From positions 1 to 60,296 of the forward strand of contig CAZUWJ010000002.1 in the NCBI GenBank assembly GCA_964624315.1: a stretch of 60,296 nt of DNA, read 5' to 3'. The translations under genes were made by a program, and so were the position numbers. Below the pieces are notes generated by a model, which saw only the letters and a program-made list of their open reading frames with translations, was not told the DNA's origin and ran no database searches. This stretch comes from an uncultured Gammaproteobacteria bacterium (GTDB lineage Bacteria; Patescibacteriota; Patescibacteriia; Magasanikbacterales; GWA2-37-8). Below, piece by piece: positions 243-55,525 of the stretch (positions within the stretch are counted from its first letter, which is position 1; each line of letters opens with the position of its first letter).

Positions 243-1790
243 ATGAATTTAACAACTATTATTGGAATGGAAATACACGTGGAACTCAAAACTGATTCCA
301 AGATGTTTTGTTCATGTAAAAATGACCCTAATAACTCAGCGCCTAACACCAATGTCTGTGAAATCTGCTTAGCCCACCCCGGAACACTACCTGTGCCAAA
401 CAAAAAAGCAATTGAATGGACTGCCAAAGTAGGAAAGGCTTTAAACTGCAAAATAAACGACGTTTCCAAATTTGATCGCAAACACTACTTTTATCCTGAT
501 CTGCCAAAAGGATATCAAATATCACAATACGACGAACCAGTGGCAGAACACGGATTTATAAATCTAGAATTTAAAACAGAAAAAAATCACCGCTCAAAAG
601 CTAAGATAGGCATAACCCGCGCCCACCTGGAAGAAGACACTGCCAAATTAACCCATGATAATGACGGAAACACCTTAGCTGATTTTAATAGAGCTGGCGT
701 GCCTCTCGTTGAAATTGTGTCTGATCCTGATATTCAAAGCTCTACCGAAGCCAAAAAATACTGCCAGGAATTACAGATGATTTTTAGAACTCTAAAAATT
801 AGTGACGCTAATATGGAAAAAGGACAAATGCGTTGTGAGGCTAATATTTCTGTCCAAGAAACAGGAAAATTTAAAATTGAAAATGGTTTAGTTGTGCCTT
901 TGGGCAATTATAAACTAAACAATAAGGTAGAATTAAAAAACCTAAACTCTTTTAAGGCAATAGAACGTGGAATAGAGTATGAAATAAAAAGACAAACTGA
1001 AATGATAAAAAAAGAAGAAGGGTGGATACAGCAAACTAGAGGCTGGGATGCAGACAAACAAGAAACAGTCTTGCAAAGAGAAAAAGAAACTTCAGCTGAC
1101 TATCGCTATTTCCCAGAACCAGACATTCCCCCATTTAATCCAATACAAATTGCAGGGGAGATACGTTTACCAGAGTTACCACAAGAAAAAAGAAAAAGAT
1201 TCCACGAAGAATACGGCTTTTCTTATGATGATAGTTATCTTTTGGCTTCATCTATTTTGTGGAGTGAATTCACTGAAAATGTTTTGAGTGAATTAGTTGA
1301 ATGGTTACACTCTATACCAGAAGTAAGCGGAGAAACTGATGAAATAAAAGTAAACAAAAAAAACAAAATTGCCCGTCTGGCCGGTGGCTTGATAACCAGC
1401 AAACTAATGGGGGCGATGATTGAAAGAAAAATGGATATAAAAGATTTAAAAATTAAACCAGAAAACTTTGCTGAGCTAATATCACTTATCTACACTAATA
1501 AAGTAAACTCCACTAACGCTCAAAAAATATTAATAGAAATAATAGATAGTGGAGTGGATAAAGACCCTAGTCATATTATGGAAGATCAAGGTTATGGACA
1601 AGTTGATGATGAAGAAAAATTAACCGCTATTATAGAAGAAATTATTAAAAATTATCCTAAACAAGTAACTGAATACAAGTCCGGTAAAGAAACAATCTTA
1701 AAATTCTTGGTCGGCATGGCTATGAAAGCTTCTGAAGGTAGTGCTAATCCTCGAAAAGTAGAAGAAATGCTAAAAGAAAAATTAAATTAA
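243..1790 (+). CDS. gatB: Asp-tRNA(Asn)/Glu-tRNA(Gln) amidotransferase subunit B
   Basis: 515-aa ORF. The N-terminus IIGMEIHVELKT..KMFCSC and the C-terminal YqeY-like tail are typical of GatB. Confidence 0.93.
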   Translation: MNLTTIIGMEIHVELKTDSKMFCSCKNDPNNSAPNTNVCEICLAHPGTLPVPNKKAIEWTAKVGKALNCKINDVSKFDRKHYFYPDLPKGYQISQYDEPVAEHGFINLEFKTEKNHRSKAKIGITRAHLEEDTAKLTHDNDGNTLADFNRAGVPLVEIVSDPDIQSSTEAKKYCQELQMIFRTLKISDANMEKGQMRCEANISVQETGKFKIENGLVVPLGNYKLNNKVELKNLNSFKAIERGIEYEIKRQTEMIKKEEGWIQQTRGWDADKQETVLQREKETSADYRYFPEPDIPPFNPIQIAGEIRLPELPQEKRKRFHEEYGFSYDDSYLLASSILWSEFTENVLSELVEWLHSIPEVSGETDEIKVNKKNKIARLAGGLITSKLMGAMIERKMDIKDLKIKPENFAELISLIYTNKVNSTNAQKILIEIIDSGVDKDPSHIMEDQGYGQVDDEEKLTAIIEEIIKNYPKQVTEYKSGKETILKFLVGMAMKASEGSANPRKVEEMLKEKLN

Positions 1791-1794
1791 AAAA

Positions 1795-1820
1795 AGCCTT
1801 GCTAACAGCAGGGCTTTTTT
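1795..1820 (+). terminator. intrinsic terminator after gatB
   Basis: Hairpin AGCCTTGCT-AAC-AGCAGGGCT (one G.U pair) followed by TTTTTT. Confidence 0.7.
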
Positions 1821-1835
1821 GTGGATAAATAACAT

Positions 1836-1864
1836 TTGACCTATACCCAATGATTTGCTATACT
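1836..1864 (+). promoter_or_regulatory. sigma70-like promoter for the carA leader
   Basis: TTGACC (1836-1841), 17-nt spacer, TATACT (1859-1864) with an upstream TG. Confidence 0.6.
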
Positions 1865-1881
1865 AATTTTAATATAAACAC

Positions 1882-1929
1882 ATGAAAAAATATATCGCAA
1901 AATTAATAAGTTTAAAAATAAACTGGTAA
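1882..1929 (+). CDS. 15-codon leader ORF (MKKYIAKLISLKINW) upstream of carA
   Basis: ATG at 1882 and TAA at 1927-1929. The stop abuts the 5' arm of the downstream terminator hairpin. Too short to appear in the ORF track. Confidence 0.3.
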   Translation: MKKYIAKLISLKINW

Positions 1930-1958
1930 TACCACCCGTAGCGGGTGGTATTTTTTTT
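1928..1958 (+). terminator. intrinsic terminator / candidate attenuator 8 nt upstream of carA
   Basis: ACCACCCG-TAG-CGGGTGGT stem (1931-1949) extended by A-T pairs, then T8 (1951-1958). The carA ATG is at 1967. Confidence 0.7.
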
Positions 1959-1966
1959 GAAAAAAC

Positions 1967-3025
1967 ATGAAATTTAATCCCTCACAACTAACCTTAAAAA
2001 ATAAAACAGTATTTACTGGTTTTTCTCCTACCTGGCAAAAAAATATTTCTTCTGGAGAAGTTGTTTTTACTACTGGTATGACTGGCTATGTAGAAAGTCT
2101 TACTGATCCATCTTATGCTGGGCAGATTTTAACTTTTACCTACCCTCTAATTGGTAACTACGGCGTACCTGATAAAAAATATTGGGAATCAAAAAAAATC
2201 CATGCCCATGGTGTAATAGTGGGTGAAGCTTGTTTAAACTGGAGTCACCAAGCAGGAAAAACTGGCTTACTAGATTGGCTCAAAGAACAAAATATCCCAA
2301 TCATTACTGATGTGGACACCAGGGCTCTCACCAAATTATTACGTGAACATGGTGTGATGCTGGGGGCTATCAATTGTTCTCAAAATAAATTAAAAAAAGA
2401 TTACAAATTTATTGACCCCAACAAAAACAATCTAATTGCCAAAGTATCTATAAATAAGAAAAAAACTTATGGTAAGAGCAATAAAAAAATCTTTGTAATT
2501 GATTGTGGTATGAAAGAAAATATCATGCGCTCACTTTTAAAATTTGATCTGAATATTGAACGCATACCATACAATTATGATTTTACCAATAAAAAATTTG
2601 CTGGTGTTTTTATATCCAATGGACCAGGAGATCCTCTAACAGCAAAAGAAACTGTAAAAATAATCCAAAAAGCCATGAAAGCTAAAAAACCAATTTTTGG
2701 AATTTGTCTTGGTGCGCAAATTATAGCTTTAGCAGCCGGTGCCAAAACCTACAAACTTCCCTATGGACATCGTGGACAAAACCAACCTTGTATTGAAACA
2801 ACGTCCAAACACTGCTATATCACTAGCCAAAACCATGGCTATGCTATAAATGAAAAAACCTTGCCAAAAAATTGGGAAGTAACCTTTAGAAATTTAAATG
2901 ATAATTCTGTTGAAGGTATTACTCACAAATCATTACCTTTTTTTGCAGTTCAATTTCATCCAGAAGCTACTCCAGGACCAACTGACACTGAGTGGCTATT
3001 TAAAAAATTTTATGACTCAATCTAA
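1967..3025 (+). CDS. carA: carbamoyl-phosphate synthase small (glutaminase) subunit
   Basis: 352 aa with the class I amidotransferase motif PIFGICLGAQ and the HGY/HPE catalytic region. Confidence 0.92.
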   Translation: MKFNPSQLTLKNKTVFTGFSPTWQKNISSGEVVFTTGMTGYVESLTDPSYAGQILTFTYPLIGNYGVPDKKYWESKKIHAHGVIVGEACLNWSHQAGKTGLLDWLKEQNIPIITDVDTRALTKLLREHGVMLGAINCSQNKLKKDYKFIDPNKNNLIAKVSINKKKTYGKSNKKIFVIDCGMKENIMRSLLKFDLNIERIPYNYDFTNKKFAGVFISNGPGDPLTAKETVKIIQKAMKAKKPIFGICLGAQIIALAAGAKTYKLPYGHRGQNQPCIETTSKHCYITSQNHGYAINEKTLPKNWEVTFRNLNDNSVEGITHKSLPFFAVQFHPEATPGPTDTEWLFKKFYDSI

Positions 3026-6000
3026 TTTTAAAAAAGTTTTAATATTAGGCTCTGGTGGCCTGCGTATTGGCCAAGCCGGTGAATTTGATTATTCTGGTTC
3101 CCAAGCTATCAAAGCTCTAAAAGAGGAAAATATAAAAACCATTCTTGTTAATCCTAATATAGCCACTGTTCAAACTGATAAAACCATGGCAGATAAACTA
3201 TATCTCCAACCTCTAAATACAGCTACGGTAACAAAAATTATTGAACAAGAAAAACCAGACGGATTATTACTTAGTTTTGGTGGACAAACCGCACTAAATC
3301 TAGGTTTGGAACTACACGAACAAGGAATTTTGAAAAAATACGGAGTTGAAGTTCTTGGCACACCAGTGGCAACTATAAAAATGACAGAGGATAGGAATTT
3401 ATTCAAAAAAGCTTTGAATGAAATAAAAATAAAAACTGCCAAAAGCTTTGCTGTAAATACAGTACCACAAGCTCTAAAAGCTGCAAAAAAAATTGGTTAC
3501 CCTATTATGCTACGCTCTGGTTATTCTCTTGGGGGATTAGGTTCTGGTGTTATTCATTCACAACAAGAACTGGAAGTTAAAGCAGTAGAATCTTTGCACG
3601 GTGCTCCACAAATTCTCATTGAAGAATATCTGGGTGGTTGGAAAGAAATTGAATATGAAGTGGTAAGAGATTGTGACAACAATACCATCACTGTGTGTAA
3701 TATGGAGAACTTTGACCCCATGGGAATTCACACTGGTGAAAGTATTGTTGTAGCCCCATCACAAACTCTTAACAACGAAGAATACCATCTCTTGCGTAAA
3801 ATCGCTATAAAAACAATCCAACATATTGGAATTATCGGTGAGTGTAATATTCAATATGCCCTCAATCCAAAAACTAGCGACTACAGAGTGATTGAAATTA
3901 ACGCCAGACTCTCTCGCTCCAGCGCATTAGCTTCAAAAGCCACTGGCTATCCCTTGGCTTTTATAGCAACAAAACTAGCTCTCGGTAAACGCTTAGACCA
4001 ACTCCAAAATACAGTAACAAAAAAAACCTCAGCTTTTTTTGAACCAGCCCTTGATTATTTAGTAATAAAAATGCCTCGCTGGGATATAGGTAAATTTAAA
4101 GATGCTCAGATGCGTATTGGCTCGGAAATGAAAAGCGTGGGAGAAGTAATGGCTATTGGACGTTCTTTTCCAGAAGCGCTACAAAAAGCTATTCGTTGTC
4201 TCAATATTGGTGCCGATGGATTAGACAATTATCCTTATGAAATTAAAGACTTGAAAGAAGAAACTCAGAATGCTACTTTTAGACGTCTATTTGCTATATA
4301 CCAACTCTTGAAAAAAAATACGAGTGTAGAAGAAATTCATAATCTATCACAAATAGACCCTTGGTTTATTCATCACCTACAATCCATTGTTAAAATAGAA
4401 AAAAATCTTAAAAAAGACAGGCTGAACACAACACTTTTACGACAAGCTAAACAAAATGGATTTTCTGATAAAACCATAGCTAGATTTACCAATAGTACTG
4501 AAAATAAAACTAGAAAAAAACGTCAGCAATACAAAATTACTCCAGTAATAAAACAAATTGATACTCTGTCTGGAGAATTTCCTGCTGAAACCAATTATCT
4601 ATATACCACCTATCACGGTAAATATCATGATATAAAACCTTCACAAAAAAAATCTACCATTGTGATTGGCTCTGGTCCATACTGCATTGGTTCTTCAGTA
4701 GAATTTGATTGGTGTGCAGTCAATACCGCAAGGTCCTTGCGTGAGATGAAAGAGCAAACTATTATTATAAATTCTAATCCGGAAACTGTTTCGACAGATT
4801 ATGACGAATCTGATCGTTTATATTTTGAAGAACTAACAGAAGAACGTATCAAAGATATCGCTGATTTTGAAAATCCTAAAGGTATTATTATTTCAGTAGG
4901 AGGACAAATTGCCAACAATATAGCTCTACCACTCTACAAAGCTGGCTACCCAATTCTTGGTACGAATCCACAAGACATTGACAGAGCTGAAAACAGACAA
5001 ATTTTTTCTGCCTTACTTAATAAATTAAAAATTGACCAACCTATTTGGCAAGAGGTCACAACTTTAAGCAAAGCCAAACAATTTGCCAAAAATATTGGCT
5101 ACCCTATTTTGGTGCGACCTTCCTACGTTTTATCTGGGGCAGCTATGAATGTTGTATATAGCGAACAAGAGCTACAGCAGTATCTAACAGAGGCTGGAAT
5201 TGTTTCGCCAAACCATCCAGTGGTTATGTCACAATTTATTACCAAAGCAAAAGAACTAGAACTAGATGGTGTGGCAAACAATGGAGAAATTATTATAGAA
5301 GCTATTGCAGAGCATCTAGAAAATGCTGGTGTCCATTCTGGTGATGCCACTATTGTTTTACCACCTCAACGATTATATTTAGAAACTATTCGTCGTACCA
5401 AAAAAACTGCTAGAGCAATTGTCAAAGCTTTGAATATTACAGGTCCATTTAATATTCAGTTTATTGCCAAAAATAATGATATAAAAGTTATCGAATGTAA
5501 TTTGCGTGCTTCTCGTTCGTTTCCTTTTGTTTCCAAAGTTACCAATTATAACTTTATTGATATTGCTACAAAAATTCTTTTAAAAAAACACTTACCCAAA
5601 ATATACAAAACTCTTGACCTAGATTATGTTGGTGTCAAAACATCTCAATTCTCTTATAATCGTATTAAGGGTGCCAATCCCGTGGCTCATGTAGAAATGG
5701 CTTCTACAGGTGAAGTGGCTTGTCTTGGTGACAATTATCTACAGGCTTTTTTTGCTTCCTGGTTTGCCACCGAACAATCTATAAAAGGAAAGAAAATTTT
5801 AATTAGTATTGGTGGAGATTATAACAAAAATAAACTTTTTGAGGGTATCCGAAAATTAGAAGAAAAAGGTTGGAAAATATATACTACAAACGGTACGCAT
5901 GACTTCCTGGCCAAACATGGTGTAGCTTCCAATTTTTTACACAAACTAAGCGCTAACCAAGAACCAAGTATTTCCAGTTCTATCCTTAAGCAAGAAGTTA

Positions 6001-13691: not shown

Positions 13692-14636
13692 ATGTTGGAT
13701 TTAATTATTATTGGAGGATCAGCGGCCGCTTCTAGTGCAGCTATTTACAGCGCCCGTCGCAAATTAAATTTTAAAATGATAACCAAAGACTTAGGTGGTG
13801 AAGTAGCTCTGTCGGGCGAAGTTGGTAATTGGCCTGGAATTATTAATATTCAAGGATTTGAACTAGCCAAAAAATTTACCGACCATGTCAAATCTTATGA
13901 AGTGGATATTGAAGAAGGCTTTAATGTAGAAAAAATTGAACAAAAAGAAAAATATCTCATAGTCTATGCTAAAAACTTTTCTGGAGAAGAAAAAACCTAC
14001 GAAACAAAATCAATTATAGTAGCAACTGGCATACACCCTCGTCATTTGGAGATACCTAATGAAGAAAAACTATTTCACAAAGGAGTTACTTATTGCACAG
14101 TCTGCGACGGCCCTCTCATGAGAGATAAAACTACAGCAACGATCGGATCAGGTAATAGCGCGCTAGAATCTGCCTTAATGATGTCTCAAATTGCTAAAAA
14201 AGTATATTTAATTAGCAAATATCCAGATACCAAAGAAGCTAACGGTGGTTTCCCAAGAGGAGAAAATATTTTGATAGACAAAATAAAAGCCATGGATAAT
14301 GTAGAAATAATATACTCTACCAAAACTACTGAAATTTTAGGTGAAGATAAAGTAAGTGGATTAAAATACAAAACAGACACTGGCGAAGAAAAAGAAATAG
14401 AAGCTGATGGAGTAATGATACACATTGGTTTTACTCCTAATTCTCAATTTATCGACTGTGTAGAAAAAGATAGAGCCGGACAAATAATGGTTAATAAAAA
14501 AGGAGCTACTAATTGCCCTGGTATTTTTGCCGCTGGAGATGTGACTGACATTCCTTACAAACAAATTGGTATTGCTTCTGGACAAGGCATAATCGGTGCT
14601 TTATCAGCAATTGAATATATAAATAAATTGGCATAA
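13692..14636 (+). CDS. trxB: thioredoxin-disulfide reductase-like FAD-dependent oxidoreductase
   Basis: 314 aa with a GGSAAASSA dinucleotide fold, the redox CTVCDG motif and GDV.D near the C-terminus. Confidence 0.75.
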   Translation: MLDLIIIGGSAAASSAAIYSARRKLNFKMITKDLGGEVALSGEVGNWPGIINIQGFELAKKFTDHVKSYEVDIEEGFNVEKIEQKEKYLIVYAKNFSGEEKTYETKSIIVATGIHPRHLEIPNEEKLFHKGVTYCTVCDGPLMRDKTTATIGSGNSALESALMMSQIAKKVYLISKYPDTKEANGGFPRGENILIDKIKAMDNVEIIYSTKTTEILGEDKVSGLKYKTDTGEEKEIEADGVMIHIGFTPNSQFIDCVEKDRAGQIMVNKKGATNCPGIFAAGDVTDIPYKQIGIASGQGIIGALSAIEYINKLA

Positions 14637-20831: not shown

Positions 20832-22079
20832 ATGAATAAAAATTATAACTTAGCCGTAATAGGCGGAGGCCCGGCTGGAATGATGGCTGGTGGACACGCT
20901 GGAGAACTCGGTTCTCAGGTTGTTTTGTTAGAAAAAAATTCTCGTCTAGGTTTAAAATTACTCATTACTGGTAAAGGCAGGTGTAATATTACTAATGCAG
21001 AGGACGATTTAAAAAAACTAATCCAAGTTTATGGATCAAACGGAAACTTTTTACATTCTGCTTTTAATAAATTTAATAACATTGATACCATAGATTTTTT
21101 TGAATCTCATGGACTGCCAACAAAAGTAGAGCGTGGTAACAGAGTCTTCCCTGTCTCTGATCATTCAGCCGATGTTTTAGGAATATTAAAAAAATATTTA
21201 AATAAAAACAAAGTTGAGATACGATTAAATAGTCCAGTCAAAAAGATAATGCTAAATAAAAATAAAATAGAAAAAATTATATTAGAAAATAATGAAGAAA
21301 TTGTAGCTGATAATTATTTAATCTCAACTGGGGGGAAATCATATCCTACCACTGGCTCAACTGGGGATGCTTATAAATGGTTAGAAAAAATGGGTCACAC
21401 TATCGTCAGCCCTCAGCCTGCTTTGACCCCCATACTAACGAAAGAAAAATTAGTTAAAAAATTAGAAGGGCTAAGTTTAAAAAATGTAGAAATAAGTTTG
21501 TGGAACACAAAAAAACTAGCTTCCTATTTTGGTGAAGCCTTATTTACTGGGAACGGTCTAAGCGGACCAATAGTATTAAACCTAAGTAAAAATATTTTAA
21601 AATACAAACAGAATGGTTTAAAAATAAAAATAGATTTTAAACCAGCGCTAGACTACCCTACTCTAGATAAAAGGATACAAAAAGATTTTGAAGAACAAAA
21701 AAACAAACAATTTAAAAATAGTTTAGATAAATTATTACCAAAAAAACTTATTCCAGTTATAATAGGCTTGTCAGGTATCAAAGAAAATAAAAAAATAAAC
21801 GAAATTACAAAAGAAGAAAGAAAAAAATTAATAAAACTTTTAAAAGAATTTGAATTAACTTTTTTAGAATTAGAAGGTTGGAATAAAGCCATCATAACTA
21901 CAGGCGGAGTAAGCACAAAGGAGATTGATCCTAAAACTTGTAAATCAAAAATAATAAACAACCTATACCTTGCCGGAGAGATTCTAGACATTGACGGACC
22001 AACTGGCGGATATAATCTGCAGATAGCCTGGAGCACAGGTTATCTAGTGGGAGAAGCAATAAAAGAAACTACAGTTTAA
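20832..22079 (+). CDS. HI0933/BaiN-type NAD(P)/FAD-dependent oxidoreductase
   Basis: 415 aa with VIGGGPAGMMAG and LLITGKGRCNITN signatures. Confidence 0.8.
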   Translation: MNKNYNLAVIGGGPAGMMAGGHAGELGSQVVLLEKNSRLGLKLLITGKGRCNITNAEDDLKKLIQVYGSNGNFLHSAFNKFNNIDTIDFFESHGLPTKVERGNRVFPVSDHSADVLGILKKYLNKNKVEIRLNSPVKKIMLNKNKIEKIILENNEEIVADNYLISTGGKSYPTTGSTGDAYKWLEKMGHTIVSPQPALTPILTKEKLVKKLEGLSLKNVEISLWNTKKLASYFGEALFTGNGLSGPIVLNLSKNILKYKQNGLKIKIDFKPALDYPTLDKRIQKDFEEQKNKQFKNSLDKLLPKKLIPVIIGLSGIKENKKINEITKEERKKLIKLLKEFELTFLELEGWNKAIITTGGVSTKEIDPKTCKSKIINNLYLAGEILDIDGPTGGYNLQIAWSTGYLVGEAIKETTV

Positions 22080-51502: not shown

Positions 51503-51524
51503 AAACACAAAACCAGCCCTTTTA
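51503..51524. repeat. 22-nt direct repeat, copy 1 (flanks the AbiE-like cassette)
   Basis: AAACACAAAACCAGCCCTTTTA matches 52875-52896 at 21/22 positions. Confidence 0.85.
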
Positions 51525-52139
51525 GGCTAGTTTTGTACTGTTACTTGCATCTAAAATAATTTTTTCTACCCTCTCCCCTTTCTTTTTATTTACTTTTTTT
51601 AATTTATTCAAATATTTTTTTAATATTTTTTTATCTAAATTATCTAAATTCATCTCTTCCCAATCAACATCAGCATATCCATTCAAAGATAAATAAACTA
51701 AGTCAATTACTGCCTTTTCAGGTTTAGCTATCAAAACGTTATCTTTTATTTCATATCCCCACCACAAAGACTCACTAATATGTTGATAAATAATCATTCT
51801 TCCATCTATATCAATTTTTCTAGCCCGATTTAAACTAACTAAAGTTAAGTTAGAAGGTTGTTGGCTTAAAACACCACTAATTGCCAAAACATATTCTAAA
51901 GATAAATAACTAGGCGAATAAATTTCACAAGATAACTGTTCATAATCAACCTTATTTATATTCATTGAATATAAACCATTTCCAATCTTCTGTAATTCTT
52001 CGTTTTTAACCATTCTTGACAACTTTACTCGCAAACTATTTTCTTTTAAATCACTCAATTTTAAAATATCAGAATAATATAGATATCCTTTATTAATTTT
52101 TTCTATTTTTTTTATTAATTTTTTCATATAACTGTTCAA
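51522..52139 (-). CDS. AbiEi-like wHTH antitoxin
   Basis: 205 aa with the N-terminal pattern YLYYSDILKL...LSRMVKNEELQKIGNGLYS, typical of AbiEi_4. Confidence 0.6.
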   Translation of the reverse strand: MNSYMKKLIKKIEKINKGYLYYSDILKLSDLKENSLRVKLSRMVKNEELQKIGNGLYSMNINKVDYEQLSCEIYSPSYLSLEYVLAISGVLSQQPSNLTLVSLNRARKIDIDGRMIIYQHISESLWWGYEIKDNVLIAKPEKAVIDLVYLSLNGYADVDWEEMNLDNLDKKILKKYLNKLKKVNKKKGERVEKIILDASNSTKLA

Positions 52140-52794
52140 TTATTTTCCAATGATTTTTAGGTAGAAATTTTTGCATATCATTTACAAACAACCGTCTTGG
52201 ATAATCTGGTGTTTCAATAGGAATCTCAAACTGTTGACGTAAAGCACTATCAATAAACCACAAATCAAAAATGTCTCTTGATTTTTTTCTATTTTTTATG
52301 GCCTCTAATTTCAATTCTTTTAGATCCTTCAGCGAAGGAACTAGAAACAAAGGTTTAAAAACAGAAACTGGACTTTGAATTAATAATAATTCTGGTTTAA
52401 AATTAGGTTTGCGAGCTGGTTTATGAATTTCAATTTTTATAGAAAACGGATGTTTTAATTTACTATCTTTAATATTTATCAGAGCAAATATTGTTTGTCT
52501 TTTATCTTTAATATCAGCTAATTTCCAATTATCTTTTTGTGATATTAAATTTTGAACAAAAATTTTAAAATTATCAAATTTTATTTTACCCATCGCTAAA
52601 AAATCAAGGTCTTCAAAAAAACGAGGAGAGTTATAAGCTAAACGCATAGCTGTTCCACCATAAAAAACCAACTTTAAACTTAGCTTATCCCGTGATAATT
52701 CTTGCAAAATATCCATCTCTGCTTCCTCGCGTAAAATATGATCGCGGGCAATCTTTAATTCTTTTATAAATTGATTTAATTGTTCTTCGGTCAT
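52093..52794 (-). CDS. AbiEii/AbiGii-family nucleotidyltransferase toxin
   Basis: FYGGTAMRLAYNSPRFFEDLDF and RKKSRDIFDLWF match the DUF1814 signatures. Confidence 0.7.
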   Translation of the reverse strand: MTEEQLNQFIKELKIARDHILREEAEMDILQELSRDKLSLKLVFYGGTAMRLAYNSPRFFEDLDFLAMGKIKFDNFKIFVQNLISQKDNWKLADIKDKRQTIFALINIKDSKLKHPFSIKIEIHKPARKPNFKPELLLIQSPVSVFKPLFLVPSLKDLKELKLEAIKNRKKSRDIFDLWFIDSALRQQFEIPIETPDYPRRLFVNDMQKFLPKNHWKIIEQLYEKINKKNRKN

Positions 52795-52840
52795 AGATTA
52801 TATTTAATGATACATAATTATTAACATTTTTGATAATATT

Positions 52841-52869
52841 ATTGTATCATATATTTCAAGTCTTGTCAA
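52841..52869 (-). promoter_or_regulatory. promoter of the AbiE-like cassette
   Basis: Minus strand: TTGACA (52864-52869), 17-nt spacer, TACAAT (52841-52846). Confidence 0.5.
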
Positions 52870-52874
52870 GAGAC

Positions 52875-52896
52875 AAACACAAAACCAGCCTTTTTA
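52875..52896. repeat. 22-nt direct repeat, copy 2
   Basis: AAACACAAAACCAGCCTTTTTA, immediately upstream of the cassette's -35 box. Confidence 0.85.
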
Positions 52897-52995
52897 AACC
52901 CCAAAGGGATTCCTTTGGAACATTTTACCGTGACGCAATTTCACAACCTTGTCCAAATTTGGTATAATTAAATTTATAAAATAAATATTTAAATT

Positions 52996-54243
52996 ATGAA
53001 AAATAAAACATACATTGGTGCTTTAGCTGTTGTAGTCGCCGCCTTGCTTTGGAGTTTGGACGGAATTTTCTTACGTCCCAATTTACACACCCTACCATCA
53101 ACTTTGGTTGTATTTTTAGAACATTTATTAGGATTTATAGTCTTAACTCCATTTTTAATAATGTATGCCCACGAAATGAAGTGGATAAGCAAAAAACAAT
53201 GGGGAGCAATATTCTGGGTCTCTTTGTTTGGCGGAGCTCTTGGTACCACCTTTATTACCAAAGCCCTATTTTTAACAGGCTTCAAAGATGTTTCTGTTGT
53301 TATACTTTTACAAAAAATCCAACCAATATTTGCCATTATCTTGGCCTCTATTTTCTTGCGCGAAAGATTCCCAAAAAGATTTTATGCCTACGCTATTTTG
53401 GCTGTAATATCCGGATATTTTGTAGCTTTCAAAGACCCTCTACAAATAATGAGCTTACCAGCAACCACCTTTTTAACCATACTATTCGCTTTATTGGCTG
53501 CTTTTTCTTGGGGATCATCCACTGTTTTTGGAAAATATTCTCTAAAAAACATAAATCACGGGCTTTTAGCTGCTTTACGTTTTGGATTAACGGCACTTTT
53601 GATGCTAATTCCAGCTATTTTCTTTTCACAGCAAGCTTGGCTAGCTATAGAAGCTAGACATTGGCTAATCTTAGTGACGGTAGTATTTACCTCTGGCTCA
53701 ACCGCTATCTTTTTGTACTATTGGGGTCTCAAAAAAATTCCCGCCTCAATCGCTACTTTATGTGAACTATCCTGGCCGGTTTCAGCTTTATTATTTGATT
53801 ACTTTTTCAATCACAATGTCTTATCACCCACCCAAATAATTGGAGCTGTGGTTTTAGTCTTTGTGGTTTACAAATCAACCGCTTTGGTAAAATCTCACCA
53901 TATAACTGGTACTGTCATAGAAGGAAAAAATAAAGGTAAAGAAGTGGACATGCAAACCGCCAACTTACTAACCACTCGAGCCGGTAAATTACCAAAAGGA
54001 TTATATACTTGTGCAGTTACTTGGGAAGGACACAGCTACCAAGGATTGTTATATTATGGATATAATTCTTTGAGCGGAGAGGACTGTTTAGAAACTCATA
54101 TTCTAAATTTTTCTGGAGATATTTATGGAAAAAATATAAAAGTAAAAACTGATAAATACTTGCGCTTACCAAAAAAATTCAAAAATATAAAGGATTTGAT
54201 GGAGCGCACAAAAAAAGATCTAGAATTAATTAAAAAGATATAA
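52996..54243 (+). CDS. EamA/DMT permease fused to a C-terminal riboflavin kinase domain
   Basis: Residues 1-~295 form 10 TM helices of the EamA type. Residues ~300-415 are GTVIEGKNKGKEV..QTANL...LETHILNFSGDIYGKNIKV, a RibF C-domain pattern. Confidence 0.7.
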   Translation: MKNKTYIGALAVVVAALLWSLDGIFLRPNLHTLPSTLVVFLEHLLGFIVLTPFLIMYAHEMKWISKKQWGAIFWVSLFGGALGTTFITKALFLTGFKDVSVVILLQKIQPIFAIILASIFLRERFPKRFYAYAILAVISGYFVAFKDPLQIMSLPATTFLTILFALLAAFSWGSSTVFGKYSLKNINHGLLAALRFGLTALLMLIPAIFFSQQAWLAIEARHWLILVTVVFTSGSTAIFLYYWGLKKIPASIATLCELSWPVSALLFDYFFNHNVLSPTQIIGAVVLVFVVYKSTALVKSHHITGTVIEGKNKGKEVDMQTANLLTTRAGKLPKGLYTCAVTWEGHSYQGLLYYGYNSLSGEDCLETHILNFSGDIYGKNIKVKTDKYLRLPKKFKNIKDLMERTKKDLELIKKI

Positions 54244-54313
54244 ATTAATAATTAGACAAAAAATATCTGCCATGATATGATATTTTCTGTATAGCATACT
54301 AAATTAGTAAACT

Positions 54314-55525
54314 ATGAAAAAGATTTATAAAAAACTTTTCTTCGCCCTATTCGCATTAGGAATGTTTTTACCTATTTTAACTTTTGCCAAAGATTTAAAC
54401 ACTGTCCCTATTTATTTCTTTTGGGCCCATGGCTGTCCCCATTGTGCCGAGGAAGAAATATTTTTAGAAGAATATAACCAAGAAAAACCTAATCTAAAAA
54501 TTTATAATTTTGAAGTAACTGACAATAAAGAAAATCAAAAGTTATTTATTGAAACAGCTAAAAAATTAAACGCCGACACAACTGGAATTCCTTTAACTAT
54601 TGTTGGTGACTACGTTATATCAGGCTATGGAAGTCCAACCGCTGATGAAATAAAGTATGTGGTTGAATATTGCGAACAATATACTTGCAAAGATGTGGTA
54701 GGAGAAATTTTAGGCATAAACCAAACTACGCCGACAGCCGACCAAACTCCGCCAGCCCAAACTTTGGAGAAAAAAATACCGGACAAAATAGAAGTTCCTT
54801 TTATAGGTGAAATAAAAACCAAAGACTTATCTTTACCTGTTTTAACTGTAGTAATCGGAGCACTCGACGGATTTAATCCCTGCGCCATGTGGACTTTAGT
54901 TTTTTTAATTAGCATGTTACTCGGGATGCAAAATAAAAAACGCATGTGGGCGCTTGGCATAGCTTTTATTGTTTCCTCAGCGTTTGTTTACTTTTTGTTT
55001 ATGGCTGCCTGGCTTAACTTATTCTTATTTATAGGATTTGTATTTTGGGTTAGAATAATAATTGCCATAGTGGCTCTGGGAGCTGCCTACTATAATCTAA
55101 AAGATTATTTCACCAACAAAGATGCAGTATGTAAAGTTACAGGCACAGAAAAAAGACAAAAAGTTTTTGAAAAAATTAAACATGTTATACAAACCAAGCA
55201 ATTTATCTTTGCCCTGGCTGGGATAATAGTACTTGCTTTTGTGGTCAATCTTGTAGAGTTAGTTTGTTCAGCTGGGTTACCCGCTGTTTATACTCAGATA
55301 TTAACTTTATCCGATCTAAATGTTTGGCAGTATTATGGTTATTTATTTTTATACATACTCATTTTCATGCTAGATGATTTGGTAGTATTTTTTGTAGCGA
55401 TGATCACCTTGCAAATGACTGGTATTAGTTCAAAATACAGTCGCATCTCTAGACTGGTCGGTGGTATTATAATGTTAATTTTAGGAATCTTACTTATCTT
55501 CAAACCAGAATGGCTAATGTTTTAA
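54314..55525 (+). CDS. thioredoxin-fold domain fused to a DsbD/CcdA-like membrane domain
   Basis: Signal peptide, WAHGCPHCAEEE (CxxC), then TM helices with GALDGFNPCAMW. Confidence 0.65.
   Translation: MKKIYKKLFFALFALGMFLPILTFAKDLNTVPIYFFWAHGCPHCAEEEIFLEEYNQEKPNLKIYNFEVTDNKENQKLFIETAKKLNADTTGIPLTIVGDYVISGYGSPTADEIKYVVEYCEQYTCKDVVGEILGINQTTPTADQTPPAQTLEKKIPDKIEVPFIGEIKTKDLSLPVLTVVIGALDGFNPCAMWTLVFLISMLLGMQNKKRMWALGIAFIVSSAFVYFLFMAAWLNLFLFIGFVFWVRIIIAIVALGAAYYNLKDYFTNKDAVCKVTGTEKRQKVFEKIKHVIQTKQFIFALAGIIVLAFVVNLVELVCSAGLPAVYTQILTLSDLNVWQYYGYLFLYILIFMLDDLVVFFVAMITLQMTGISSKYSRISRLVGGIIMLILGILLIFKPEWLMF

Follow-up and report, generated by a model that had tools for sequence, protein, structure and literature searches.

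In Pnu-type vitamin uptake, as in the pairs of PnuC with the kinase NadR or of RibM/PnuX with a riboflavin kinase, the vitamin is trapped as a phosphate ester. For riboflavin itself the impX gene of Fusobacterium nucleatum, together with its flavin mononucleotide (FMN) riboswitch, restored growth of an E. coli delta-ribB strain at low riboflavin (PMC4418817). The same 2015 survey of bacterial riboflavin transporters printed the impX cloning primers, saw ImpX only in riboflavin prototrophs and listed a further characterised transporter, RibN, as reported in Proteobacteria only (PMC4418817). Here we describe a gene at positions 52996-54243 of a 60,296-nucleotide stretch of DNA (the window; contig CAZUWJ010000002.1 of assembly GCA_964624315.1) that is deposited as an uncultured Gammaproteobacteria bacterium and placed by GTDB in the Patescibacteriota, order Magasanikbacterales. 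Its single open reading frame (ORF) joins an ImpX-type permease to a riboflavin kinase domain, and it is likely that the permease imports riboflavin and that the tethered kinase converts it to FMN, which would amount to metabolic trapping. Both halves are of known families, ImpX and riboflavin kinase. Public databases already contain the covalent architecture, with generic names only, and the open-access full-text literature searched yielded no account of a fusion between a permease and a riboflavin kinase.

The protein shares features with each of the described systems and coincides with none of them. As in Pnu-type uptake a permease would admit the uncharged vitamin and a cytoplasmic kinase would trap it, but those systems divide permease and kinase between two proteins and use an unrelated transporter fold, whereas here one polypeptide holds both. 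With ImpX it shares two EamA repeats, a length of about 300 aa for the transporter and the ten-transmembrane (TM) DMT fold. ImpX however stands alone under an FMN riboswitch and was seen in the survey only in prototrophs (PMC4418817), while the protein of the window carries a C-terminal kinase, has no riboswitch and comes from a genome in which no rib genes were found. The assembly, 583 kb split over 27 contigs, has a marker-based completeness of 77%, so that absences of rib genes or of a flavin adenine dinucleotide (FAD) synthetase count here and below as “not found” only. Monofunctional riboflavin kinases (RFK) and the C-terminal module of RibF (1nb0/1q9s, 1mrz, 5a88) have the same fold, the same Thr and Asn, the Glu and the Gly-rich segment; the kinase of the window differs in lacking the FMN adenylyltransferase domain that is a feature of RibF and in being attached to a permease. 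The first-pass annotation had compared the transporter to RibN. Membership of the same DMT superfamily stands, as does riboflavin as the probable common substrate, but it is ImpX that proves to be closely related and that is the nearest transporter with a known function. The features on which the following rests are these:

52996 to 54243, forward strand: the whole fusion gene (ImpX-type permease plus riboflavin kinase), an open ORF of 415 aa and a stop codon

52996 to 53889, forward strand: the transporter half, residues 1-298, from Pfam EamA, AlphaFold2 helices, Foldseek and the ImpX match

53890 to 54240, forward strand: the riboflavin kinase domain, residues 299-415, from PF01687, sequence matches in the PDB and Foldseek

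53908 to 53967, forward strand: the Gly-rich segment (G305, G310, G314) and a PTAN-type motif present as QTAN, from the alignment

54091 to 54093, forward strand: the codon of E366, from the alignment with solved kinases

52940 to 52968, forward strand: a promoter-like site, TTCACA-17-TATAAT, its -10 hexamer preceded by TG, from a consensus match

The two-domain composition proposed from the letters of the ORF, a ten-TM EamA permease joined to a riboflavin kinase domain in 415 aa, was borne out by Pfam, AlphaFold2 and Foldseek. Pfam recognised EamA twice (E 1.1e-36, 126.5 bits) and Flavokinase PF01687 at residues 299-414 with E 5.8e-24 and 85.1 bits against a cut-off of 19.6, covering profile positions 3-122 of 124; in a six-frame search of the genome the same domain scores 89 bits. 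PF06574 (FAD_syn) had no match in the protein, and the RibF models of NCBIfam were matched solely via the C-terminal kinase part and far under their cut-offs; the protein therefore has no FAD-synthetase (FMN-adenylyltransferase) domain, as had been proposed. An AlphaFold2 model built on a 70-sequence alignment reached a mean predicted local distance difference test score (pLDDT) of 94.3 and a predicted template modelling score (pTM) of 0.91, with pLDDT mostly above 90 in the kinase part. It shows ten TM helices, the last ending at residue 297, followed after a junction of about 4 residues by a beta-barrel (302-390) and a C-terminal helix (398-414). Foldseek related the transporter half to the DMT transporters LicB (TM-score 0.82) and YddG (0.75-0.78, both normalised by target) and the kinase half to human riboflavin kinase 1q9s at a root-mean-square deviation (rmsd) of 2.1 Å, as well as to 5a8a, 1s4m, 1nb0 and 1n06; among these matches are the kinase parts of two FAD synthetases, from C. 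ammoniagenes and T. maritima, and over the riboflavin kinases the rmsd is 2.1-2.7 Å. Since the distribution of Lys and Arg (12 predicted inside vs 4 outside) favours an N-in, C-in arrangement of the permease, both termini of the permease are predicted to be cytoplasmic and the kinase to lie on the cytoplasmic face.

All kinase motifs quoted in the first-pass annotation were found in the translation: GTVIEGKNKGKEV at residues 305-317, QTANL at 320-324, LETHILNF at 365-372 and GDIYGKNIKV at 374-383. In an alignment of 31 fusions G305, G310, G314, T321, A322, N323, E366, R390 and D408 are invariant. The kinase domain has sequence matches in the PDB to 3op1, 1mrz, 5a88 and 1nb0; in 3op1, 1mrz and 5a88 the Thr and Asn of the PTAN motif fall on T321 and N323, and the conserved Glu on E366. 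We take the catalytic Thr, Asn and Glu to correspond to T208, N210 and E268 of the C. ammoniagenes FAD synthetase, with E268 presumably the catalytic base. PDB entry 3zug, an E268D mutant, is consistent with that role. With the catalytic Thr, Asn and Glu retained, the domain is predicted to be a competent riboflavin kinase.

The link of the permease half to riboflavin comes from several sides. The published impX forward primer is present in five metagenome contigs, and in L122 the reverse primer matches too. Between the two primers L122 holds an FMN riboswitch (118 bits) and a 299-aa ORF with EamA twice, which aligns by BLASTP with residues 8-284 of the window protein at 45% identity over 286 residues (E 1e-68). 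Common to both are W..DG in TM1, LLQK.QPIFAIILA and CEL..P. A maximum-likelihood tree was computed on the permease part of the alignment alone (75 rows, quick search, support by the Shimodaira-Hasegawa-like approximate likelihood ratio test, SH-aLRT), and a larger tree as well. ImpX falls within the family, in a clade with 99% support; a node supported at 93% (SH-aLRT) unites this clade with the fusion clade of the window (99%) and with one further fusion clade. FMN riboswitches immediately precede unfused Patescibacteria homologues, whose ORFs begin where the riboswitch ends: in L100, from a Daviesbacteria genome, one at 2879-2996 (83 bits) meets the ORF starting at 2995, and in L110, from the Patescibacteria genome G041, another scores 64.6 bits, just below the gathering score of 66.2. 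In six genomes, including three Buchananbacteria, a stand-alone Flavokinase gene of 121-131 aa lies directly upstream of the permease gene, and fusion to Flavokinase occurs in several separate clades of the permease tree. Because of the identity to ImpX, the tree position, the riboswitches, the adjacent kinase genes and the kinase fusions, we assign the permease half to the ImpX family.

In a related, uncharacterised database protein, P0141, the permease (PF00892) is fused at the same C-terminal position to a CTP-dependent riboflavin kinase (PF01982), a class that is the archaeal counterpart (PMC5397151). P0141 is 39% identical to the window protein over residues 5-333 and groups with permeases from archaeal metagenome-assembled genomes (MAGs). 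It thus shares the permease clade and the placement of the kinase with the fusion described here, but its kinase is of the RibK type, and because this family is not homologous to Flavokinase the P0141 fusion is convergent. Other long members of the ImpX family were seen as well: P0184 (574 aa) carries a C-terminal HAD-type hydrolase, and two long frames occur in genomes of the same class (G487:C4:28591-29448, 643 aa; G475:C6:17604-18470, 487 aa).

The reading frame might in principle have arisen by an assembly or sequencing error joining two genes, as the first-pass annotation had warned; we give this practically no chance. Among 5.8 billion proteins, each of the best 120 homologues has both Pfam domains; their lengths are 400-457 aa and their identities 61-94%, and they bear public names no more specific than “EamA family transporter” or “DMT permease”. 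HMMER, run exhaustively against 1.84 billion representatives at 50% identity, returned no fewer than 15 distinct clusters of full-length fusions, the most distant at 33% identity. A species-level genome scan gave 320 loci encoding relatives, and the 80 from which counts were taken included 37 with permease and kinase in one ORF; at least 37 Patescibacteria genomes at species level thus have the fusion, spread over Magasanikbacteria, Nomurabacteria, Paceibacterota, Komeilibacteria and unclassified Patescibacteria. From a marine metagenome run comes a 4366-bp Logan contig, a separate assembly though its source sample may be the same, that spans 52943-54400 with two mismatches and no gaps, and so crosses the joint; two other runs, X2 and X3, contain parts of the stretch only. 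Compared with the 94%-identical relative L126, the ratio of nonsynonymous to synonymous substitution rates (dN/dS) is 0.057 over the whole gene, with 0.054 in the permease part and 0.043 in the kinase part; at about 0.05 in each, both halves are under strong purifying selection. An artefact is thus contradicted by hundreds of independent full-length homologues, by a second assembly that is gap-free across the joint and by codon-level purifying selection that runs through it, and we consider it ruled out.

In a set of 401 genomes (400 evenly sampled Patescibacteria and the window's own) a Flavokinase domain was present in 99, mostly as a stand-alone ORF of 120-170 aa, and the ImpX fusion in the window's genome only. 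Within the same class, 20 others among 120 genomes have an ImpX-family gene, two of them as a full fusion. Fused and unfused forms interleave, and on well-supported branches the trees call for a minimum of 8-9 switches between the two states; gains and losses of the fusion are not separable in this count, and some “unfused” database proteins may be fragments. One unfused permease within the fusion clade (P0123) has a BipA fragment upstream and no kinase. At the 20 Patescibacteria kinase loci first fetched no ImpX homologue was found near the kinase, and in G071 and G158, two genomes of the same family, all kinases are stand-alone; a stand-alone kinase beside the permease, looked for in close kin at these 20 loci and in these two genomes, was not seen. 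Nine loci with a Patescibacteria-type gene (L026, L032, L043, L047, L053, L054, L057, L065 and L066) come from MAGs titled “uncultured Gammaproteobacteria bacterium”, and their genomes of 0.7-1.3 Mb and their gene content suggest that these titles are wrong.

The kinase has other fusion partners in Patescibacteria. An ABC ATPase with a C-terminal Flavokinase (376-427 aa) was observed in L014 and also in G096:C3 and G047:C78, so that a second type of transporter-kinase fusion exists in the group; in L014 (G019:C60:17000-23500) an FMN riboswitch in the interval 466-3767 is followed by genes for the BPD_transp_1 permease of an ABC system, for a binding protein of NMT1/THI5-like, RibXY-type character and for the ATPase-kinase. 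Among L010, L011, L016 and L017 (genus g89) and L019 and L020 there are fusions of riboflavin synthase, with two Lum_binding repeats, to a C-terminal Flavokinase, and fusions of Flavokinase to a C-terminal 5-formyltetrahydrofolate cyclo-ligase. No RibF-type protein combining FAD_syn and Flavokinase occurred among the long Patescibacteria ORFs examined.

Within the genome of the window the fused domain is the only Flavokinase found in a six-frame profile search, and the fusion is the only permease homologue detectable. Lumazine synthase (RibH) and riboflavin synthase (RibE) were not found in the assembly. A use for the product is at hand: an FMN-dependent tRNA-dihydrouridine synthase (Dus) lies at G000:C10:1006-1980 (275 bits), and the window itself encodes two FAD-type enzymes, a TrxB-like reductase (13692-14636) and an HI0933-like protein (20832-22079). 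A match to DHO_dh was rejected as an FMN enzyme, being IMP dehydrogenase, and no flavodoxin, nitroreductase or CoaC-type flavoprotein was found in the genome. Because of the TrxB-like and HI0933-like enzymes FAD is needed, yet a synthetase is not recognised in the genome: PF06574 has no match across the assembly. As the sole candidate FMN adenylyltransferase found we can offer, as speculation, a cytidylyltransferase-like protein of about 130-150 aa whose gene (G000:C15:12496-12840, reverse strand; L116 1465-1860) adjoins lysS, with an RdgB-Nudix fusion gene on its other flank. Its orthologues in other fusion genomes just exceed the FAD_syn cut-off at 28-31 bits, and its best solved relative is 3glv (143 aa).

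From these data the following mechanism can be proposed. Riboflavin from the environment or from a host cell would enter through the permease and be phosphorylated to FMN by the tethered ATP-type kinase at the inner face of the membrane. Because FMN is charged and would be barred from leaving by the same route, uptake would be pulled forward. The same domain would serve as the only riboflavin kinase of the cell, its FMN would supply at least Dus, and a separate enzyme would adenylylate FMN to FAD for the TrxB-like reductase and the HI0933-like protein. We infer the substrate, the direction of transport, the kinase activity and the kinetic coupling of the two halves; that transport is inward would follow by analogy with ImpX and from the genome context.

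How tightly the two halves work together is the point on which the accounts differ. The fused domain is the only Flavokinase in 36/36 other fusion-bearing genomes and thus also a housekeeping enzyme. Lumazine synthase is encoded in 8/36 of these genomes, where the kinase would therefore also act on internally made riboflavin, so that the fusion is not an obligatory import-only device. The rationale offered in the first-pass annotation, that coupled import and phosphorylation would suit an auxotroph with a reduced genome, hence agrees with the failure to find riboflavin synthesis genes here but does not hold in general. A “group translocator”, in which the docked kinase would take riboflavin from the vestibule of the permease and its catalytic cycle would gate or drive transport, is in our view unlikely, and in its strict form it is disfavoured because the kinase is not restricted to freshly imported substrate. 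We assign a similarly low probability to the opposite account, in which the permease imports, the housekeeping kinase is simply anchored at the membrane with neither channelling nor gating, and co-expression in a minimal genome maintains the fusion. The status of the kinase as sole Flavokinase speaks for such an anchor, as do the genomes with RibH, in which it must accept free cytoplasmic riboflavin, the fusions of the Patescibacteria kinase to riboflavin synthase, 5-formyltetrahydrofolate cyclo-ligase and ABC ATPase, and the interleaving of fused and unfused forms in the tree. On the other hand the very short conserved link between TM10 and the kinase and the two-domain pTM suggest a fixed docking, and the recurrence of the pairing with a non-homologous kinase and as adjacent genes points to an advantage of proximity. 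The anchor account departs from the best explanation, import with immediate trapping by a tethered housekeeping kinase, solely in the degree of coupling.

That best explanation has to bear a number of opposing points. Export is the function of many EamA proteins; that import is obligatorily coupled to phosphorylation is something that we infer; the completeness of 77% and the 27 contigs weaken the genome absences; and the lumazine synthase genes in other fusion genomes have been described above. In the kinase the Pro of PTAN, not conserved here in contrast to RFK and RibF, is replaced by Gln at a position that is variable across the fusion family, and D318 occupies a position that is Gly in over 90% of the family (Asp at 318 occurs in one other alignment member, P0064). 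An identity of 45% to the characterised ImpX is moreover below ortholog-level certainty and would leave room for a related flavin or analogue (deazaflavin, roseoflavin-type or lumichrome-like) as the substrate that the kinase domain phosphorylates. We consider this very unlikely, given the FMN riboswitches upstream of unfused homologues and given that a sole kinase and the FMN and FAD enzymes require true conversion of riboflavin to FMN. Even less probable is a flavin exporter that would expel FMN made by the kinase, or a non-catalytic, kinase-like flavin sensor gating the permease. The many exporters in the EamA/DMT family and weak NCBIfam similarity to the YddG and YedA exporter models could be cited for export; against it, riboflavin synthesis genes were not found in the genome, which would leave nothing to export, and the nearest characterised relative imports riboflavin (PMC4418817). 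A sensor is hard to reconcile with catalytic Thr, Asn and Glu that are invariant and under purifying selection, and with the lack of any other kinase available for FMN formation.

Upstream of the gene the promoter-like site matches the consensus at 11/12 positions with an extended -10 element, and this putative promoter ends 28 nt before the ATG of the fusion gene, a leader too short to leave room for a riboswitch. The absence of an FMN riboswitch, noted earlier from visual inspection, was confirmed with Rfam: none reached the gathering score in the window, a sensitive scan of 52500-53200 at E<=10 gave nothing relevant, and none appeared in the results for the whole assembly. Two short palindromes, gtcttgtcaagagac and ccaaagggattcctttgg, lie at 52860-52925, ahead of the promoter-like site in the intergenic region between the divergent genes; both are missing from the upstream region of the relative, which is unrelated except for its last ~50 bases. 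Further upstream, between a PfkB kinase gene and the fusion gene, the reverse strand at 51522-52794 encodes a nucleotidyltransferase toxin of AbiEii type (52093-52794) and, overlapping it, a 205-aa partner without a Pfam match. The block looks like an inserted type IV toxin-antitoxin module, since in the 94%-identical relative L126 the PfkB and fusion genes are only ~175 bp apart. Just downstream, on the forward strand at 54314-55525, a 403-aa ORF without Pfam matches at E<=0.1 is signal-like at its N-terminus and contains a CPHC motif of thioredoxin type and a membrane part of several helices; in the contigs of the relative (L126-L128) the equivalent position is taken by a 404-aa gene.

Reduced-genome organisms including Patescibacteria are thought to scavenge cofactors, and the genes responsible are mostly unannotated. 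Reading the fusion as an ImpX permease with a riboflavin kinase would assign to these genomes a route of riboflavin uptake and their only FMN-forming enzyme, and it exposes a gap, as FAD-dependent enzymes are present and no recognisable FAD synthetase was found. The protein also offers a compact single-gene module for asking whether covalent linkage speeds the capture of a vitamin. If a group translocator were the correct description, ultra-small cells would have reached this solution repeatedly, with an ATP-type kinase on ImpX, with a CTP-type kinase on ImpX in archaea and with a kinase on a RibXY-type ABC ATPase. The convergent fusions, to the archaeal kinase type and to the ABC ATPase, suggest that very small cells follow a general design rule when they scavenge vitamins.

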